A stretch of 64,000 nt of DNA. Origin: Oscillospiraceae bacterium (GTDB lineage Bacteria; Bacillota; Clostridia; UMGS1840). Below are positions 4,347 through 37,853 of the stretch, piece after piece. Numbering within the stretch: position 1 is the first letter of the stretch; each line of letters begins with the position of its first letter. The notes beneath the pieces are model-generated. The model did not search any database. It had not been told where the DNA came from and was given only the letters and a program-made list of their open reading frames with translations. The position numbers and the translations under genes were made by a program. The stretch lies in contig SVKD01000002.1 of NCBI GenBank assembly GCA_015068645.1, positions 55,733-119,732 on the forward strand. Reading direction: 5' to 3'.

Positions 4347-5911
4347 TTTTTTTAGTAAAGGATATCAAGCTTCCTGTCAGTTATACGGATGAGGAAGCAA
4401 TTTCCTATCTCACAAACACGTACTTTCCCAAAGGAAAGGTGACTGTTTATAAAAAATCGGTAGATGCCCGTAAAAAAGAGGACATCTGTTTCGTATATAC
4501 TTTTTTGGTGGAAGAAGATAGCAAAAGGATTCCGCCAAAACTAAAAAAGAAAACCGCTCCGTATCAAGAGAAAAAGCTGTCCGTCACCTATGGTGACGAA
4601 CCGCTGCCCAACCGCCCTGTGGTGGTGGGTGCAGGTCCGGGCGGTCTTTTTTGTGCCTACCTACTTGCCAAAAACGGCTACGCTCCCATTGTGTTGGAGC
4701 GTGGAGAACCCATTGAAGAACGAGTGAAAACCGTGGACGCTTTTTTTTCGGGGAAACCCTTAAACAAAGAATCCAATGTACAATTCGGCGAGGGTGGTGC
4801 AGGTGCATTTTCCGACGGAAAGCTGACCACCCGAATCAATGACCCCCTCTCTTCCGAAGTGGTACGGTTACTGGCAAAACACAGCGATTTGCCTCATCTT
4901 GCCTATCAGGCAAAACCTCATATCGGAACGGACAAACTAAGAACCTGCGTAAAAAGTTTACGAGAAGAAATTATCCGTTTGGGCGGTACTTTTTCTTTCA
5001 ATAGCCGTCTCTCTGACATTAGCATTACCAACAATAAAATCACCTCTGTTACGGTAAATGATACTGAAACAATCCTTGCATCCGTGGTGGTATTGGCAAC
5101 GGGACACAGTGCTAAGGACGTTTACGCACTCCTTCATCAAAAGGAAATTCCTTTATCAAAAAAGGCATTTTCCGTGGGTGCCAGAGTGGAGCATTTCAGA
5201 GAAACCATTGATAAAATTCAATACGGCTCTTTCGCAGGGCATCCCAACTTAGGGGCGGCAGACTATCAGGTGTTTCACCACTGCCAAAACGGGCATACGG
5301 CGTATAGCTTCTGTATGTGTCCCGGTGGTGTGGTAGTGCCCAGCCAGTCAGAAGAGGAATCCATTTTGGTCAACGGCATGAGTTACCTTGCCCGTGACGG
5401 CAAAAATTCCAATTCTGCCCTTTGCGTGTCGGTGTCTCCCGAAGATTTTGGTGACGGACTCTTTGACGGTCTTCATTTTATTGAAAATTTAGAGAAAAAA
5501 GCGTATCAAATGGCAGGTGCCAACAATCGGGCACCCTTTACCACATCTTTTGATTTTACAGGCGTAACACCCCGAGGTAAATACCCCGAACCCACCTATG
5601 CTCTGGGAGTAACTGAAGTTTCTTTTGATAAACTGTTTCCCTCTTTTATCACCGATGCATTAAGAGAGGGGCTACAAGCCTTCGATAGAAAAATGCCCGG
5701 CTTTTTAAGCCAGGGTTGCGTGTTTACGGGAGTGGAAACCCGAACTTCTTCTCCCCTTCGCATCAACCGTAACGAAGCACTCCAATCGGAGAAAGCCACG
5801 GGCTTATACCCTTGCGGAGAGGGAGCAGGCTATGCAGGCGGTATCGTGTCTGCGGCGGTGGACGGAATGAAAATCGCCGTGAAAATTATGGAATCTTTTA
5901 AACCGTTTTAA
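4343..5911 (+). CDS. Uncharacterised FAD/NAD(P)-dependent oxidoreductase (COG2509-like)
   Basis: VVGAGPGG, QFGEGGAGAFSDGKL, FCMCPGG, GVETRTSSP, GEGAGYAGGIVSAAVDG; ATGA overlap with the tadA stop supports start 4343. Confidence 0.85.
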   Translation: MIFLVKDIKLPVSYTDEEAISYLTNTYFPKGKVTVYKKSVDARKKEDICFVYTFLVEEDSKRIPPKLKKKTAPYQEKKLSVTYGDEPLPNRPVVVGAGPGGLFCAYLLAKNGYAPIVLERGEPIEERVKTVDAFFSGKPLNKESNVQFGEGGAGAFSDGKLTTRINDPLSSEVVRLLAKHSDLPHLAYQAKPHIGTDKLRTCVKSLREEIIRLGGTFSFNSRLSDISITNNKITSVTVNDTETILASVVVLATGHSAKDVYALLHQKEIPLSKKAFSVGARVEHFRETIDKIQYGSFAGHPNLGAADYQVFHHCQNGHTAYSFCMCPGGVVVPSQSEEESILVNGMSYLARDGKNSNSALCVSVSPEDFGDGLFDGLHFIENLEKKAYQMAGANNRAPFTTSFDFTGVTPRGKYPEPTYALGVTEVSFDKLFPSFITDALREGLQAFDRKMPGFLSQGCVFTGVETRTSSPLRINRNEALQSEKATGLYPCGEGAGYAGGIVSAAVDGMKIAVKIMESFKPF

Positions 5912-5924
5912 ATAAGTATCAAAC

Positions 5925-6800
5925 ATGAAAAAAATGAAATCATTATCCACGCTGATGATTCTCTTAGCCGCTGTGTTTTGGGGAATTATCGGACTATTTG
6001 TAAAATACTTAACTCCCTACGGCTACACTTCGGCAGAGCTTGTGGCGCTTCGGTCTTTGGTGACGGCAGTAAGCTTATTTGCTCTGCTTATCCTTACCAA
6101 TCCGAAAAAATTAAAAATTAAAATCCGTCATCTTTGGTACTTTTTGGGAACGGGATTTTTTAGTTTTGTGTTCTTTAATCTGTGCTACTTTCAGGCAATG
6201 AACTATTCCTCTCTTTCGGTAGCGGCAATTTTGTTATACACCGCTCCCTTTTTCGTGATGGGAATGTCTTGCGTATTTTTTCGGGAGAAAATCACTCGCC
6301 AAAAACTGTTGGCGCTTTTCATGGCATTTTTGGGATGCGTGGCGGTGTCGGGCGTGTTGGAGGGCGGCGGTTCCATTTCCGCAGAAGGACTTCTTTGGGG
6401 ACTTGGTTCCGGTCTCGGCTATGCGCTCTACTCCATTTTTGCCAAATTTGCCTTAAAAAAGTATGATACCTTAACGGTTATCACATATACTTTTTTGGTG
6501 GCAACGGTAGGTTCATTCTTTTTAATCAATCCCACTCATACGGTAGGAGTTCTGCAGCTTCACCCCCAAAGCATCTGTCTTTTGGTGGTATATGGCATCC
6601 TAACCGGTGCCGCAGCCTATTACTGTTACACCAAGGGACTGGAACACACTCCCCCTGCCAAAGCGTCGGTAATTGCCACGGCAGAACCCGTGGTGGCAAC
6701 CTTATGCGGAGCGTTTTTCTTTGGCGAAATCCCCTCTGTGTTTGGGATTTTTGGAATTTTTTTGGTAATATTTGCAGTATTGTATTTACAAAAGCAATAG
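5925..6800 (+). CDS. EamA/DMT family transporter
   Basis: Ten hydrophobic segments in two repeats; AILLYTAPFFV and ASVIATAEPVVA motifs. Confidence 0.88.
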   Translation: MKKMKSLSTLMILLAAVFWGIIGLFVKYLTPYGYTSAELVALRSLVTAVSLFALLILTNPKKLKIKIRHLWYFLGTGFFSFVFFNLCYFQAMNYSSLSVAAILLYTAPFFVMGMSCVFFREKITRQKLLALFMAFLGCVAVSGVLEGGGSISAEGLLWGLGSGLGYALYSIFAKFALKKYDTLTVITYTFLVATVGSFFLINPTHTVGVLQLHPQSICLLVVYGILTGAAAYYCYTKGLEHTPPAKASVIATAEPVVATLCGAFFFGEIPSVFGIFGIFLVIFAVLYLQKQ

Positions 6801-30503: not shown

Positions 30504-32735
30504 ATGGTATTATGTTCAAAATGTAAAAAGAATATGGCAGTTGTGTTCGTCACAAAAATGGAAAACGGTAAGGAAGTTTCCGAAGGATTGTGCTTCCAGT
30601 GTGCCAAAGAGTTGGGAATTAAGCCCTTTGATAAGATGCTTTCCCAGTTTGGCATCAATGAAGATGATTTTATGAATATGAACGAACAGCTTACCGAAAT
30701 GATGGAACAAGGCGCTATGTTCGGCGACAATATGATGATGATGCCCATGGATGAAATGCCTGAGGAGGCAGAAATCCGTCCGGAGGACATTGGCATCAAA
30801 CAGAAAAACAAAAAACAGAAAAATCAAAAGAAAACTCCGTTGGAATCCTACGGCACCAACTTAAACGACAAGGCTCGTTTGGGCGAAATCGACGCGGTCA
30901 TCGGCAGAAATGCAGAAATCAACCGCGTAATTCACATCTTAAACCGCCGTACCAAAAATAATCCGGTTCTTTTAGGGGAACCCGGTGTTGGGAAAACTGC
31001 CATTGCAGAAGGTCTGGCATTAAAGATTGTGAAAGGCGAAGTGCCTCACAAGCTGTTAAACGCTCAGATTTTCTTAGTGGATTTTGCGGGAATGATTGCA
31101 GGCACCCAGTTTCGGGGTCAGTTTGAGCAGCGCTTAAAAGCTGTGGTAACAGACGCCATCGAACGTGGCAACGTGATCTTGGTGATTGACGAAATTCACA
31201 ACATCGTGGCGGCAGGTGATGCCAACGGCGCAATGAATGCGGCAAACATCTTAAAACCCTATCTGGCAAAAGGTCAGCTTCGCATGATTGGTGCCACCAC
31301 CCCCGAAGAATACAGAAAGCATATCGAAAAGGATTCTGCCTTAGAACGCCGTTTTGCAACGGTTATGGTGGAAGAACCCGATGTGTATGAAACCATTGAA
31401 ATCTTAAAAGGTATCCGTGGCTACTACGAAGATTATCACAAGGTAACCTATTCCGATGAAGCTATTGAAACCGCTGCTGTAATGGCAGACCGCTATATTT
31501 TCGATAGAAAACTGCCCGATAAAGCAATTGATTTGATGGACGAAAGCGGTGCGGTAAAAAATGTGACCAACGATTCTTTGGTGGAACTGGAAAAATTAAA
31601 GGCAGAACTTGCCTCCATCGTGGAATTAAAGGAAGCATCGGTGGAAAACGATTCCATCGACGATTATCAGAAGGCGGCAGACTATAAGATTAAAGAATGT
31701 CAGCTTCGTGACAGAATTGCTGAGCTGGAAAAAGGGGCATACCGTGCGGTAACCACCGAAGATATTGCCACCGTGATTGAAAATATCACAAGAATTCCCG
31801 TTCGCAATATCACAGGCATTGAAGCGAAAAATCTGATTCACTTAGAAGAGAAACTGAAACTCCGCATTGCAGGTCAGGAAGACGGGGTAAACGCCGTTGC
31901 CGCTGCAGTTCGCCGTGGCAGAGCAGGTCTTTCTTCCAAAAGAAAGCCCACCTCTTTCATTTTCGCAGGTCCTACGGGTGTGGGGAAAACCGAGCTGGTA
32001 AAAACCTTGGCGTATGAACTGTTTGGCAGTGAGGAAAGCATCATTCGTTTTGATATGAGTGAATATATGGAAAAGCACACCGCATCTAAGCTGATTGGTT
32101 CCCCTCCGGGATACGTTGGCTACGATGATGCAGGGCTTCTTACCGAAAAAATCAGAAAGAAACCCTATTCCATTATTCTCTTTGACGAAATTGAAAAAGC
32201 ACATCCTGATGTGTTTAACCTGCTTCTGCAGATTTTAGATGACGGTATTTTAACCGATAGCCACGGCAAAACCGTGCGGTTCTATAATGCCATCATCATT
32301 ATGACCACCAATGCAGGCAGTGACTATAAAGCCGCATCCTTAGGTTTTTCGGAAGGAAACGAAGGAAAAGCCAAAGATAAGGTGAATAAAGCACTTCGTG
32401 AATTTTTCCGTCCCGAGTTTTTAAACCGAGTGGATAAAGTTGTGGTGTTTGACCCGTTGGGCAAAGAAGAACTTCGCAAAATTACCCACATTATGCTCTC
32501 GGATATTAAAAAGAATCTCAGAGATAAAAAGCTTTATGTTTCCTTTACCGATGCGTTAGTGGAATACCTGATCGAAAACGGTTTTGATGAAAAATTCGGT
32601 GCAAGACCCCTTCGCCGCTTGATTGAACGTGAAGTGGAAGACAAGATTGCAGATCTTTTCATTTCGGGCGAATTGCTCGCCGGCGAAACCTTTACGGCAG
32701 ATTATCAAAATAACGAAGTAACCATTACAAAATAA
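30504..32735 (+). CDS. Clp ATPase with N-terminal zinc finger (ClpE/ClpC-like)
   Basis: CxxC...CxxC N-terminus; GEPGVGKT and GPTGVGKT Walker A motifs; FRPEFLNR; GARPLRR. Confidence 0.9.
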
Positions 32736-32736
32736 T

Positions 32737-32770
32737 AAAAAGAACGCTATCAATGATAGCGTTCTTTTTT
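32737..32770 (+). terminator. Intrinsic terminator after the Clp ATPase
   Basis: AAAAAGAACGCTATC-AAT-GATAGCGTTCTTTTT. Confidence 0.85.
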
Positions 32771-32789
32771 GTTTGAAAGAAGAAAAATT

Positions 32790-32887
32790 GTAGGGACAGA
32801 TGTGGTCATCTGTCCGATTTTATGATTTCGCATAACATAAAGAATAGCAATACCAAAAAACGGGACGGTGTGGGCACCGTCCCCTAC
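32790..32887. repeat. Inverted GTAG-REP doublet
   Basis: GTAGGGACAGATGTGGTCATCTGTCCG ... CGGGACGGTGTGGGCACCGTCCCCTAC. Confidence 0.8.
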
Positions 32888-32890
32888 ATT

Positions 32891-33139
32891 TTATAAATTA
32901 TGATTTCTCGTATATTTTCGTAACGATTCAATTTTTTCTAATTTCAAAGCGTAATTTTTATTGCGGGGACACTGGGTATGAACACATTCGTTGCAATCAT
33001 GTTTTCCACGTAATTCAAAGCAACAACACATATAATTACATTCATCGCAACAGCACTCATTTCCGTTTTCACCATTACCGGGACAGTCTTTTCCGCCATT
33101 TCCTGGAATCAGTTCTATTCCTGTAATATCAATAATCAT
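32891..33139 (-). CDS. 82-aa cysteine-rich hypothetical protein
   Basis: MIIDITGIELIPGNGGKDCPGNG...ECCCDECNYMCCC...; 11 Cys; AGGGGG RBS. Confidence 0.65.
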   Translation of the reverse strand: MIIDITGIELIPGNGGKDCPGNGENGNECCCDECNYMCCCFELRGKHDCNECVHTQCPRNKNYALKLEKIESLRKYTRNHNL

Positions 33140-33156
33140 AGATTTTCCCCCTATAA

Positions 33157-33306
33157 TAAAAAAGTGTGCCTTCAACCGAAGACACACCGAAAAAGTATTA
33201 TCCTCGATTGTTGCGACACAATCCATACCCCAACGGATAAGAAATAGAGGAAATACCTTTTACCAAGAGTATTTCCATTGGGGTACAATATATAGGATTA
33301 TGTCGC
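33157..33306 (-). ncRNA. Candidate structured leader RNA or sRNA ending in an intrinsic terminator
   Basis: Nested stems 33211-33224/33295-33308, 33226-33237/33274-33285 and 33249-33257/33267-33276; terminator 33164-33187 with U tract. Confidence 0.5.
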
Positions 33307-33312
33307 AAATTT

Positions 33313-33341
33313 ATTGTATCATAAAAATTTTAAAATTACAA
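33313..33341 (-). promoter_or_regulatory. Sigma-A-type promoter of the leader and Cys-rich gene
   Basis: TTGTAA-17 bp-TACAAT with extended TG. Confidence 0.6.
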
Positions 33342-33409
33342 GTATTTTATCAAAGAAAAATTGTAGGGACAGATGTGTAAATTGTTCTATGCAACTTTAT
33401 CTCAAAAAC

Positions 33410-33449
33410 AAAAAGACGAAATTCTTTGAAAAAGAACTTCGTCTTTTTT
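33410..33449. terminator. Third copy of the AAAAGACGAAATTCT terminator
   Basis: AAAAGACGAAATTCT-ttgaaaa-AGAACTTCGTCTTTT. Confidence 0.75.
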
Positions 33450-33463
33450 ATTGATCCTAACGT

Positions 33464-33809
33464 AAGGCGATGAGAAATGGATGCAGAATTCGGAAATCGA
33501 ATCAAGGCAACACCTTGACGAGCCCGAAGCCGTAGTACTGCGTACAGCATAACGGTACGCCGAGCGGTGAGATTCACGGATTATGCGCCATTTATCAAGC
33601 CGTTCCCAAAGGCGAAGAAAAAGGGCATAGAATTTGCAAACTGAACCGAAGGGTTACCCGAAGGCGTACATTGGTACGCCGAGCGGTGAAGTTTGCAGAT
33701 AGCAAAAGGCATTCTAATCAAAATTTGTGCCAACAAATTTTCACCTTAAACAAAAAGGCATAGGAAATAAATCCTATGCCTTTTGCGGTCTATGTTCTTT
33801 TTCAAGCCG
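33464..33809 (+). repeat. Tandem family C copies (short 33464-33604, long 33609-33809), abutting carB stop
   Basis: Both end in TCAAGCCGT; the second is followed directly by the carB stop. Confidence 0.85.
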
Positions 33810-36800
33810 TTAGAAAGAAACTTTACCTTCAAAGGATTTCACCGCCGGTCCAGTCATTTGAATAGTTGAATCTGTGTAACGGATTTTTAAATCTCCGCCG
33901 GGGAGCTTCACGGTGATATCGGTATCTTTTTCACAGTGACCGTTTAAGATTGCTGCAACAGCTGCTGCGCAAGCACCGGTACCGCAAGCTAAGGTTTCGC
34001 CGATACCACGTTCCCAAACACGCATTTTCAGGGTGTTTTTATCAATCACAGTAACAAATTCCACGTTTACCCGATCGGGGAACATGGGATGATATTCCAG
34101 TTCGGGACCAATTTTTTCTAAGTTTACGGTGTCTAAGTTTTCAGTGAATACTACTGCGTGAGGATTGCCAACTGCTAAGCAGGTTACGTTAAAGGTTTCG
34201 TCTGCAACACTGATGGGTTCGTTAATCACCGGTTCTTTGTCGGAAACCACGGGAACCAGTTCGGGTTTGGTTTCTGCCTTGCCCATATCTACCTGTGCTG
34301 CAACTACTTCGCCCTCCATGGTGTAAACCTTCAGCTTTTTCACACCGCTTAAGGTTTCAATTTCCATATCTTCACGGGGAACAATGCCCTTGTCATACAG
34401 GTATTTACCCACGCAACGGATAGCGTTTCCGCCCATTCTGCCCTCGGTGCCATCTGCATTGAAGATTCTCATTTTCGCATCAGCAATTTTGGAAGCTTCA
34501 ATGACCACCGCACCGTCTGCACCGATGCCAAAGTGACGGTCGGAAAGACGGATTGCCAGTGCTTCGGGGTTATCAATCTGCTTGTCTAAGCAATCAAAAT
34601 AGATATAATCGTTGCCCAAGCTCTGCATTTTGGTAAATTCCACAGTCACTTTATCTTCGCGCATATTGTTGATATCCACGATTTCGATGCTTTGTTCAGA
34701 GTATTTACCTTTCATAGAGTTGATAACAGCGTTTGCAGTGTCAATAGAGGTGAAGCAGGGAACGCTTCTTTCTACCGCTTTTCTTCTGATTTTTACGCTG
34801 TCACGTTCGGGCAGTCTACCTTTTGCGGAAGTGGAAACTACAAAGTTTACTTTACCGCTTTCAATCAAGGTTAGAGTGTTGTTTTCTGCATTTTCGTGAA
34901 TTTTATCCACGGGGATAACAGGAAGACCTGCATCGGAGAGCACTTTTGCGGTGCCGTGAGTGGAATATAAGGTGAATCCTAAATCGTGGAATCCTTTTGC
35001 CACGCCGTAAATTTCCGCTTTGTCGGAATTTCTTACGGAAATGAACACACCGCCTTTTTTATGGAGCTGATAGCCGGCTCCGATTAAGCCTTTATACAGG
35101 GCTTCTTCCAAGTTTGCACCGATACCTAAAACTTCCCCGGTGGATTTCATTTCAGGCCCTAAGTGAATGTCTACCCCTAAGAGTTTGGCAAAGGAGAACA
35201 CAGGCACTTTGACTGCCACATAGGGAGAATTTCTGTAAAGACCGGTGCCGTAACCCATATCTTTTAATTTTTCGCCCAACATTGCACGGGTTGCCAAGTC
35301 AATCATAGGCACCTTGGTTACCTTGCTGATGTAGGGAACAGTTCTGGAAGATCTGGGATTTACTTCGATGACATATAATTCGTTATCATACACCAGATAC
35401 TGGATATTTACCAGACCTTTGGTGTTTAAGGCAACGGCTAATTTCTTGGTAGCATCAATGATTTTTTGAATCATGGGAACATCTAAGTTAAACGCAGGAT
35501 ATACGGCGATAGAGTCACCGGAGTGTACCCCTGCACGTTCAATATGTTCCATAATACCGGGGATTAAAATGTCTTCCCCGTCGGAAATGGCGTCAACTTC
35601 AATTTCAGTACCCATTAAATATTTGTCAATCAAAATGGGGTTTTCGTCCAGACCGTGCAAAATAATCTTCATATATTCCTTGGTGTCGTTATCGTTCCAA
35701 GCAATAATCATATTCTGACCGCCCAATACATAAGACGGACGAATCAGCACGGGATAACCGATACGGTTTGCAGTTTCCAATGCTTCTTCTTCGGTTAACA
35801 CGGTAAAGCCCTGAGGACGTTTGATGTTGAGTCTTTCAAGTAAATCGTCAAAACGTTCTCTGTCTTCCGCCATATCAATGCTGTCTGCACTGGTACCCAA
35901 GATTCTTACCCCGTTTTCCTGGAGGAAGTTGGTCAGTTTAATGGCAGTACCGCCACCAAATGCAACCACCACGCCGTAGGGTTTTTCGGTGTGAATCACG
36001 TTCATCACGTCTTCGGGGTTTAAGGGTTCAAAATACAGACGGTTTGCAGTGTCAAAGTCGGTGGAAACGGTTTCGGGGTTATTGTTGACGATAACCACTT
36101 CGTAACCTGCTTCCTGGAGCGCCCATACACAGTGTACGGATGCATAGTCAAACTCAATCCCCTGACCGATACGGATCGGACCGGAACCGAATACGATAAT
36201 GGTCTTTTTGTCGGTGGGATTGTTATCAATAAATTCTCTTGCTTCGTTGGCTTCTTCATAGGAAGAATAGAAGTAGGGGGTCTGTGCATCAAATTCCCCT
36301 GCACAGGTGTCTACCATCTTATAGGAAGCATAGATTTTTTCAGGAACTTTCTGATTGGATAAGTTTTCAATCACCTTGTCCAAAAAGCCCATTTTCTTCG
36401 CTTCTAAGTGAAGTTCTTTGGTTAAGGGTTCTTCTTTCAAGCGACATTCCATCTTGTAAAGATTATAGAGCTTGGATAAGAACCAACGGTCAATCTTGGT
36501 GATATCATAGATGGTGTCGATAGAAACGCCACGGGTGATAGCTTCATACACCACGAAAATTCTTTCGTCGTTGCACTGATAAAGTTTTTCGTTAATCACC
36601 TCATCGGATAAGCCAACCAAGTCTTTATGGCGCATAGAATCCTTGGAAATTTCTGCTCCGCGGACTGCTTTCATAATGGCTTCTTCAAAGGTGGCACCGA
36701 TTGCCATAACTTCCCCGGTAGCCTTCATCTGAGTGCCTAAATCACGTTTTGCATACACAAATTTATCGAAGGGGAATTTGGGGAATTTTACTACCACATA

Positions 36801-37853
36801 GTCAATGGCAGGTTCAAAACAAGCATAGGTTTTGCCGGTTACTGCATTTAAAATTTCGTCCAGCTGATAGCCGATTGCAATTTTTGCCGCAACTTTTGCA
36901 ATGGGATAACCGGTTGCTTTGGATGCAAGTGCAGAAGAACGGGAAACTCTGGGGTTTACCTCGATAACCGCATATTCAAAACTGTTGGGATTTAATGCGA
37001 ACTGACAGTTACAACCGCCTTCGATTTTTAATTCGTTCAAAATGTCAAGCGCTGCACGTCTTAACATGGAATATTCGTAGTCAGACAGAGAAACCGCAGG
37101 TGCGATAACAATGGAGTCACCGGTATGCACACCAACAGGGTCTAAGTTTTCCATACTGCAGACGGTGATGGAATTGCCTTTGCTGTCACGAATTACTTCA
37201 AATTCGATTTCCTTCCAGCCGGACACACATTTTTCCACCAAAACCTGAGTAATGGGAGAAAGACGCAGACCGTTGGTGGTAATCTCAATCATTTCTTCTT
37301 CGTTATTTACAATACCGCCGCCGGTACCGCCTAAGGTAAATGCGGGACGGATAATCAACGGATAGCCGATGGAATGTGCAAAATCCAGGGCGTCTTCCAA
37401 AGTGTTTACAACCTTGGAGGGGATAACGGGCTGGTTGATTTTTTCCATCATATCCTTAAACATCTGACGGTCTTCTGCCTTGTCGATGGTTTCAGGATTT
37501 GCGCCCAATAATTTTACGTTATGCTTGTCCAAAAAGCCTTCTTTTGCCAGCTGCATAGACAGGGTTAAGCCTGTCTGACCGCCTAAGGTTGAGAGTAAGC
37601 TATCCGGCTTTTCTTTTTCGATAATTCTTTTGATAACGGGCAGAGTTAAGGGTTCAATGTAGATTTTATCAGCCATTTTGCTGTCGGTCATAATGGTTGC
37701 AGGGTTGGAGTTTACCAAAACAACTTCCAGACCGTCTTCTTTTAAAGCACGACAAGCCTGGGTGCCTGCATAGTCAAACTCTGCTGCCTGACCAATGACA
37801 ATGGGGCCGGAACCGATGACTAAAACTTTTTTGATTTCTTTATTTAACGGCAT
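33810..37853 (-). CDS. carB: Carbamoyl-phosphate synthetase large subunit fused to a C-terminal DapF-like domain
   Basis: GSGPIVIGQAAEFDYAG, duplicated ATP-grasp halves, MGS domain; then KMQSLGND, FNADG, GNPH, ERG and LACGTG DapF motifs in one reading frame. Confidence 0.93.
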   Translation of the reverse strand: MPLNKEIKKVLVIGSGPIVIGQAAEFDYAGTQACRALKEDGLEVVLVNSNPATIMTDSKMADKIYIEPLTLPVIKRIIEKEKPDSLLSTLGGQTGLTLSMQLAKEGFLDKHNVKLLGANPETIDKAEDRQMFKDMMEKINQPVIPSKVVNTLEDALDFAHSIGYPLIIRPAFTLGGTGGGIVNNEEEMIEITTNGLRLSPITQVLVEKCVSGWKEIEFEVIRDSKGNSITVCSMENLDPVGVHTGDSIVIAPAVSLSDYEYSMLRRAALDILNELKIEGGCNCQFALNPNSFEYAVIEVNPRVSRSSALASKATGYPIAKVAAKIAIGYQLDEILNAVTGKTYACFEPAIDYVVVKFPKFPFDKFVYAKRDLGTQMKATGEVMAIGATFEEAIMKAVRGAEISKDSMRHKDLVGLSDEVINEKLYQCNDERIFVVYEAITRGVSIDTIYDITKIDRWFLSKLYNLYKMECRLKEEPLTKELHLEAKKMGFLDKVIENLSNQKVPEKIYASYKMVDTCAGEFDAQTPYFYSSYEEANEAREFIDNNPTDKKTIIVFGSGPIRIGQGIEFDYASVHCVWALQEAGYEVVIVNNNPETVSTDFDTANRLYFEPLNPEDVMNVIHTEKPYGVVVAFGGGTAIKLTNFLQENGVRILGTSADSIDMAEDRERFDDLLERLNIKRPQGFTVLTEEEALETANRIGYPVLIRPSYVLGGQNMIIAWNDNDTKEYMKIILHGLDENPILIDKYLMGTEIEVDAISDGEDILIPGIMEHIERAGVHSGDSIAVYPAFNLDVPMIQKIIDATKKLAVALNTKGLVNIQYLVYDNELYVIEVNPRSSRTVPYISKVTKVPMIDLATRAMLGEKLKDMGYGTGLYRNSPYVAVKVPVFSFAKLLGVDIHLGPEMKSTGEVLGIGANLEEALYKGLIGAGYQLHKKGGVFISVRNSDKAEIYGVAKGFHDLGFTLYSTHGTAKVLSDAGLPVIPVDKIHENAENNTLTLIESGKVNFVVSTSAKGRLPERDSVKIRRKAVERSVPCFTSIDTANAVINSMKGKYSEQSIEIVDINNMREDKVTVEFTKMQSLGNDYIYFDCLDKQIDNPEALAIRLSDRHFGIGADGAVVIEASKIADAKMRIFNADGTEGRMGGNAIRCVGKYLYDKGIVPREDMEIETLSGVKKLKVYTMEGEVVAAQVDMGKAETKPELVPVVSDKEPVINEPISVADETFNVTCLAVGNPHAVVFTENLDTVNLEKIGPELEYHPMFPDRVNVEFVTVIDKNTLKMRVWERGIGETLACGTGACAAAVAAILNGHCEKDTDITVKLPGGDLKIRYTDSTIQMTGPAVKSFEGKVSF

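Follow-up and report, generated by a model that had tools for sequence, protein, structure and literature searches.

On the minus strand of contig SVKD01000002.1 of an Oscillospiraceae bacterium (assembly GCA_015068645.1), a promoter, a long RNA fold and an intrinsic terminator stand directly in front of a small Cys-rich gene. What does such an arrangement do: does it decide whether the gene is transcribed, or does it make a small RNA of its own? The original prediction left this choice between an attenuator or riboswitch-like switch, with metal or redox as a guessed signal, and an independent sRNA. The window referred to below is the whole 64,000-nt stretch of DNA that was analysed, and bare coordinates are those of the window.

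The leader in the window

The promoter and start site proposed for this region are present. The sigma-70-type site at 33313..33341 (minus strand, as are all leader features) joins a -35 element TTGTAA (33341-33336) to a -10 element TACAAT (33318-33313) across 17 nt of spacer, in which a TG extension occupies 33321-33320; six nucleotides separate the -10 from the predicted +1, a G at 33306. Promoter-like sites are not enriched in the leader region (5 versus 4.0 expected from shuffles), and the promoter is assigned on the conserved spacing between hexamer and rod rather than on site frequency. Of 135 scored members of the family described below, 126 carry a TAnnnT hexamer 4-9 nt 5' of the point where the rod begins, 89 of those 126 with a TG extension, and the first P1 nucleotide is a G in 123.

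The three-stem nested rod anticipated at +1 was also recovered, as a 94-nt MFE fold at 33213..33306 composed of P1, P2 and P3. P1 (12 bp; GCGACAUAAUCC with GGAUUGUGUCGC) pairs 33306-33295 with 33224-33213 and is separated from P2 (33286-33277 with 33234-33225, 10-13 bp) by J1/2, an 8-nt bulge on the 5' side (33294-33287). The apical hairpin P3 pairs 33276-33265 with 33260-33249 around the loop GGUA(A) at 33264-33261, and is followed on the 3' side by J2/3, a 14-nt bulge (33248-33235) that starts with a CUCU motif. Segment 2 (33247..33263) denotes the CUCU together with the 3' strand of P3 and the A-run in its loop. A 25-nt linker (segment 3; 33188..33212, AACAAUCGAGGAUAAUACUUUUUCG) leads from the rod to the intrinsic terminator (helix 4:5; 33158..33187), in which 33187-33178 pairs with 33173-33164 over 10 bp, the full terminator sequence at 33187-33158 comprising GUGUGUCUUC/GAAGGCACAC with loop GGUU and a U6 tract at 33163-33158. 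An antiterminator hairpin (helix 3:4; 33174..33209) can be read from the sequence, with 33209-33195 paired to 33187-33174 and loop UUUUUCG.

The terminator and its U tract lie ahead of the Cys-rich ORF, as had been described, with 18 nt between the U tract and the ATG start codon at 33139. The ORF (33139-32891) encodes 82 aa with 12 Cys, has a ribosome-binding site GGGGG at 33151-33147, and is followed by a terminator at 32862..32883 where the transcription unit ends. The 157-nt leader RNA folds with -61.7 kcal/mol compared to -32.0 ± 3.8 kcal/mol for dinucleotide shuffles (z = -7.7), and none of 200 such shuffles folded as stably. A leader peptide was considered and rejected: the rod of the window copy contains an AUG-started frame of 26 codons, but this frame lacks a ribosome-binding site, and most family members do not have the AUG.

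Two repeats and a large ORF are found in the immediate surroundings. An exact 25-nt direct repeat (32780-32804 and 33353-33377; AAGAAAAATTGTAGGGACAGATGTG on the plus strand) brackets the cassette of promoter, leader, gene and terminator. Its downstream copy contributes to a hairpin (GGACAGATG...CATCTGTCC, 32794-32815) in the terminator T-tail of the Cys-rich gene, its upstream copy follows a terminator at 33448-33410, and the repeat occurs three times in the window genome. A second repeat, GGTACGCCGAGCGGTGA..., has copies at 33554-33581 and 33673-33700, 119 nt apart, in the ~460-nt spacer after a carB-like ORF. From its translation, this 1347-aa ORF (33810-37853, minus strand) reads as a probable carbamoyl-phosphate synthase large subunit with a putative C-terminal DapF-like (diaminopimelate epimerase) domain.

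Distribution, structure and downstream genes of the family

A DNA search of the window genome and 60 relatives showed that most genomes at genus and family level contain full or partial copies of the leader, often more than one or two. A covariance model (R1), based on three sequences (the window copy and the two orthologues nearest to it) and on the MFE structure, returned 84 matches in 27/61 relatives. By rank, these cover 10/10 genomes of the genus, 14/15 of the family and 6/9 of the sister family, and R1 matched 24 of 151 genomes when the class was sampled evenly. A second model (R2; 66 positions), limited to the common platform of P1 3' strand, linker and terminator, was found in 40 of the 151 class genomes (~1/4) and in 27 of 107 genera, at 1-17 copies per genome. 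At E <= 1e-6, R2 gave zero matches in ~147 genomes representing the phylum's other classes. The window genome contains 8 family copies, including one at G000:C5:85278.

A pattern scan of named genome records yielded at least 120 loci among the matches listed. A few of these come from unrelated phyla and have the appearance of chance matches; the others are from gut or rumen MAGs labelled Oscillospiraceae, Acutalibacteraceae, Ruminiclostridium, Faecousia or Oscillibacter, and from the isolate Anaeromassilibacillus senegalensis An867. Half of the first 100 listed loci were not matched by R1, and most of these constitute a long-rod class, with a rod of ~190 nt and an extra hairpin, that has the same P1, P3 loop, linker and terminator as the short class. 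The rod interior ranges from 94 to ~190 nt across the family. The copy in the cultured isolate An867 (L158, about 5860-6070, plus strand) is of the long-rod class, is located 5' of a lipoprotein gene, and represents a usable experimental system. Tandem arrays of two or three complete promoter-leader-terminator units are seen at L075 (G011:C35:5322-5951) and L069 (G014:C22:12951-13433). In the former, each unit also repeats the opening codons of the lipoprotein gene that follows, which points to recent local duplication.

No family of Rfam 15 (4227 models, including T-box, c-di-GMP-I/II and PyrR-site) matched the window at gathering threshold, and a search at E <= 10 over 32700-33850 gave chance matches only, far below threshold. 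The element was equally unmatched by Rfam in 20 other family members. The original prediction had considered that the structure might prove to be the end of a known mobile element. This is not what was found, because phage and plasmid collections contained no match to the element and the platform pattern occurred in just one of 2.9 million viral contigs. No description of the motif emerged from full-text searches of the literature or from keyword look-ups in PMC8040213 (for its supplement, the first 200 of 408 files), PMC11109978 and PMC8632094, and it may be published elsewhere. The leader is a real, strongly conserved family that is described neither in Rfam nor in the literature searched.

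Structural conservation was determined using an alignment of 89 sequences (A5) fitted to the covariance model. It was found that 95.6% of cells are paired compared to 66.4% after shuffling, that compensatory changes occur in 44 of the 44 modelled pairs, and that the covariation score is 0.723 versus 0.209 for shuffles (0/500 as high), bearing in mind that model-fitted alignments lean toward the modelled structure. Sliding the structure by 1-3 columns reduced the score to 0.05-0.12. In 49 further sequences, none of which was used for the model, 95.1% versus 72.3% of cells are paired, with covariation of 0.466 versus 0.141. Individual members each fold unaided into the same rod, with typical sizes of 12 bp for P1, 7 nt for the 5' bulge, 13 bp for P2, 14 nt for the 3' bulge, 10 bp for P3 and 25 nt for the linker. 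The mean energy of the rod, with its helices of 12 and 13 bp, is -39 kcal/mol.

Plain MAFFT alignment of 34 members followed by RNAalifold recovered the terminator alone, since the variable stems misalign; for this reason the model was built from three close sequences and the remaining members were re-aligned onto it. A correlation between the lengths of P1 and P2, which would have supported a fold-back geometry, was not observed (r = 0.01), and the 5' bulge showed no tertiary pairing with either the 3' bulge or the linker.

The leader is closely linked to genes. A same-strand ribosome-binding site and ORF are present within 150 nt in 111 of 137 distinct RNAs (within 60 nt in 100/137), and 26 of the 137 copies (~19%) have no adjacent ORF. 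The downstream genes are diverse, with 52 singleton families. The largest groups encode an acidic protein of ~60 aa (N-terminal DYKKLYFxLF), the Cys-rich 82-aa protein and a protein of ~76 aa ending in HDF(G); these largest clusters are of unknown function, and no common known pathway emerges. Lipoproteins, Cu_amine_oxidN1 secreted proteins, TerB, DUF4230 and AbrB/MazE-like proteins are also encoded downstream. The Cys-rich protein matched no family in Pfam or NCBIfam, and the other downstream proteins were mostly without match in Pfam, NCBIfam and the protein Atlas. Seven of the window genome's copies precede two Cys-rich genes (one interrupted), two Cu_amine_oxidN1-like genes, one lipoprotein gene and two genes for proteins with SLH-like repeats (as read from sequence); the eighth is an orphan located 5' of asd, a gene with a promoter of its own. 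We considered the acidic DYKKLYF protein as a universal partner or autoregulator of the leader and rejected it, given its presence in 8/151 genomes versus 40 leader carriers.

The Cys-rich gene can be uncoupled from the leader. Among 30 loci of Cys-rich homologues in relatives, 23 have the platform directly 5', two have a terminator remnant only, and five have a short ordinary leader (three in other genera, one in a related genus and one in the window genome). The existence of leaderless homologues, together with the unrelated genes that follow the leader elsewhere, indicates that the leader is modular and independent of the Cys-rich gene. The same diversity removes the support for metal or redox sensing, an idea drawn from the Cys-rich gene: an identical leader type precedes unrelated genes, and five loci of the Cys-rich gene do without it. 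The window genome has two further Cys-rich paralogues. The second (G000:C2:152384-152623, L238) has its own leader copy and is interrupted by an in-frame TGA or a frameshift at a G run, and the third (G000:C1:23317-23496) is leaderless. In the genus of genome G017 (L254, L267), the Cys-rich gene has an ordinary short leader and its immediate downstream neighbour encodes an acidic DY..YF protein, from the other main family located behind the leader, an adjacency that suggests the two small proteins may work together.

Linker complementarity and the four-helix relay

The original prediction placed the switch between the first strand of P1 (GACAUA) and the left arm of the terminator (UGUGUC). This pairing can be drawn in the window copy but is not conserved, with own partners at -5.8 and foreign partners at -5.6 kcal/mol. 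Furthermore, copies with a wholly different P1 retain the same terminator arm.

What is new here is the double complementarity of the linker, which gives a relay of four helices. Its specific partners are the 3' half of P3 on one side and the terminator 5' arm on the other. In the window copy, segment 2 pairs with the linker at -17.8 kcal/mol (RNAduplex). In almost all members, the best partner of the linker within the rod is this same combination of P3-loop A-run, P3 3' strand and CUCU, forming 16-20 bp at -15 to -21 kcal/mol; the site is unchanged in 7 of the 8 window-genome copies and in the long-rod class, as seen in the A. senegalensis copy. Subtypes differ in sequence with complementarity kept in each copy, as in GUGUUUUCUCU with GGAGAGACAC, AUGCAUGCUCU with GGAGCUAUGCAU and GCGCAGGCUUU with AAGCCAUGCGU.

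Partner specificity was assessed from duplex energies in 17 non-redundant members, using own, foreign and shuffled partners. Helix 2:3, the anti-antiterminator, gave -16.3 kcal/mol with own partners, -10.4 with foreign and -6.2 with shuffled ones. The corresponding values are -13.0, -8.4 and -6.4 kcal/mol for helix 3:4, the antiterminator formed by linker and terminator 5' arm, and -15.4, -8.7 and -5.2 kcal/mol for the terminator helix 4:5. Control pairings 2:4, 3:5, 1:3 and 1:4 were unspecific at about -4 kcal/mol, and pairings 2:5 and of the P1 3' strand with the linker or segment 5 were likewise unspecific. The linker and P3 of each paralogue match solely within their own copy, which fits intramolecular pairing. 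The pairings also account for conserved unpaired positions of the leader: the invariant linker U5 and the invariant P3-loop A-run are explained by pairing with one another, and so are the CUCU and a GGAG. A conserved GAAUA bulge and the UUGGUAAAA loop of the rod are not explained by the relay pairings.

The element is a chain of four mutually exclusive helices, these being P3, the anti-antiterminator, the antiterminator and the terminator. P3 alone (-10.2 kcal/mol) is weaker than helix 2:3. The antiterminator of the window copy (-13.2 kcal/mol) excludes the terminator, and terminator and antiterminator are nearly isoenergetic (-15.3 versus -12.7 kcal/mol); in the full-length MFE state, 53 of 82 members display the terminator and 29 the antiterminator. 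The leader has two of the features by which a transcription attenuator is recognised, an intrinsic terminator between promoter and same-strand start codon and a conserved alternative helix (3:4) that sequesters the terminator arm.

Proposed attenuation, rival readings and significance

We propose that the element is a cis-acting transcription attenuator, one of a family of promoter-proximal leaders in which competing helices decide termination, and assign this reading a probability of roughly 0.7. The switch-like function put forward originally stands on the leader's own promoter, its premature terminator, heavy covariation and the conserved competing antiterminator, and loses the specific pairing based on P1. 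In the proposed mechanism, transcription would begin at the first rod nucleotide and the P1-P2-P3 rod would form first. The emerging linker could then either nucleate on the unpaired CUCU and A-run, displacing the P3 5' strand, or wait for the terminator arm. Invasion of P3 to form helix 2:3 would leave the terminator free to form, releasing an RNA of ~150 nt with the gene OFF. Were P3 to remain closed, the linker would capture the terminator arm in helix 3:4, leading to read-through and the gene being ON. The default state is presumably OFF, as helix 2:3 is more stable than P3, and a factor that protects the apical hairpin or alters rod geometry would be expected to switch the gene ON. Candidates are a protein or small ligand that would recognise the CUCU region and the conserved UUGGUAAAA loop, or the kinetics of the polymerase as it passes the U5. 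As long as P1 and P2 remain paired, helix 2:3 would constitute a pseudoknot whose sterics are probably the weakest link of the model; should no pseudoknot form, the rod would be expected to out-compete helix 2:3. The great stability of the rod also counts against the model, since typical riboswitches have a short P1 gated by ligand rather than helices of 12 and 13 bp. Further points against it are the variable length of the rod interior, the lack of a shared known pathway among the downstream genes, and the orphan and tandem copies.

The logic of the leader is akin to that of tiered attenuators and kinetic ON riboswitches, but it belongs to none of them. The PyrR-dependent pyr attenuators of Bacillus subtilis similarly combine tiered exclusive hairpins with an intrinsic terminator and an upstream hairpin that decides the fate of the antiterminator. 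Unlike these, the leader matches no PyrR-site model, has one extra tier (P3 / 2:3 / 3:4 / 4:5), places its sensor hairpin on top of a 25-bp rod starting at +1, and precedes genes other than those of pyrimidine metabolism. The pbuE (ydhL) adenine riboswitch is a kinetically controlled ON switch in which a downstream strand invades the unstabilised domain, with read-through when the domain is stabilised. The leader shares the invasion of an upstream helix by a downstream strand and states that are close in energy, but has no three-way-junction purine aptamer, uses a relay segment rather than a terminator arm as the invader, and has much longer helices.

With T-boxes the leader has in common a long Gram-positive leader, a choice between antiterminator and terminator, and many copies per genome; it differs in having no specifier loop, T-box sequence or Rfam match, and in genes that are not of the aminoacyl-tRNA/amino-acid type. 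A T-box-like UGGN loop motif was examined and discarded, being unconserved, with UUGAU and UUGUU variants. The c-di-GMP riboswitch regulons of Clostridia resemble the family in copy number and in their content of surface, secreted and orphan genes. Like the c-di-GMP-I/II riboswitches, the leader is multi-copy, terminator-ended and located 5' of surface, secreted and uncharacterised genes, but RF01051 and RF01786 do not match it. The idea that the leader fills a c-di-GMP gap was abandoned, as GGDEF genes number 4 in the window genome and two of them flank a normal c-di-GMP-I riboswitch (68 bits, G000:C10:56157-56245).

The alternative named at the outset, a stand-alone trans-acting sRNA of ~150 nt with the linker or P3 loop as seed and the downstream gene incidental or served secondarily by read-through, is in our estimation improbable. 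The strong promoter and efficient-looking terminator would suit it, a paired 5' end and a 3' terminator hairpin would stabilise such an RNA, and the ~19% of copies lacking an ORF as well as the tandem units with their own promoters fit an sRNA role. Set against this, 81% of copies have a same-strand ribosome-binding site and ORF within 150 nt, mostly within 60 nt, with no promoter in between; a pure sRNA would have no use for the conserved antiterminator; and no common seed is kept, since linker and P3 co-vary in each copy and differ between paralogues. Promoter spacing, gene linkage and the conserved antiterminator favour a leader, and given the orphan and tandem copies the RNA may act as an sRNA in addition. 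That the copies are non-regulatory palindromic or mobile repeats, of the REP or MITE kind, is very hard to sustain. They are multi-copy, the window genome has other repeat families and the 25-nt direct repeat flanks the window cassette, but this repeat is a different element with its three genome copies. The leader paralogues are 65-75% identical only and show compensatory changes, each has a promoter and a terminator, and the leader keeps a fixed orientation and spacing relative to the start codon that follows. Near-identical copies flanked by target-site duplications, which would favour a mobile repeat, were not seen, and the phage, plasmid and viral searches described above speak against mobility.

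Other alternatives concern what would operate the attenuator. A strict riboswitch for a metabolite or second messenger, with the rod as an aptamer and a ligand that locks P3 to turn the gene ON, refines the attenuator reading and is in our view somewhat unlikely. A covarying structured domain joined to an expression platform, copies in front of many surface, secreted and orphan protein genes, and the near-equal energies of terminator and antiterminator are what such a riboswitch would present. It is opposed by the length and stability of the helices and by the variable rod interior, whose range argues against a single fixed ligand pocket. Few conserved unpaired nucleotides are left beyond those explained by helix 2:3, no tertiary pairing between the two bulges was detected, the regulated genes indicate no single metabolite or ligand, and for c-di-GMP the window genome already has its riboswitch. 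The attenuator could also operate with no dedicated factor, as a kinetic switch set by temperature or by polymerase speed or pausing at the linker U5 (NTP, ppGpp, NusA, NusG). The U5 directly 5' of the terminator arm is invariant, the strongly conserved unpaired A-run, U5, CUCU and GGAG are all explained by RNA-RNA pairing, and the competing states are nearly isoenergetic. A pause function is however unneeded once pairing with the A-run explains the U5, and there is no evident reason for surface and small-protein genes to track NTP pools, making this a doubtful proposition.

A broader version of the attenuator reading can be offered tentatively. The family may be a riboswitch-like class in which the apical hairpin of a +1 rod is the sensor of a small-molecule or RNA-binding-protein signal, acting through a four-helix strand-displacement relay on a regulon of up to 17 cassettes per genome for surface, secreted and orphan small proteins in ~1/4 of gut/rumen Clostridia. 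It would then be an orphan attenuator/riboswitch class whose four-tier switch is unusually explicit and backed by covariation.

If attenuation is correct, a regulatory RNA absent from Rfam controls many genes for cell-envelope and orphan small proteins, with 1-17 loci in each carrier genome, across much of the uncultured Clostridia of gut and rumen, whose regulatory biology is almost unknown. The leader also provides an annotation rule, whereby the small Cys-rich, acidic DYKKLYF and HDFG ORFs that follow it are probably real genes with regulation in common. The identity of the effector would reveal the signal that governs the surface proteome of the carrier bacteria.
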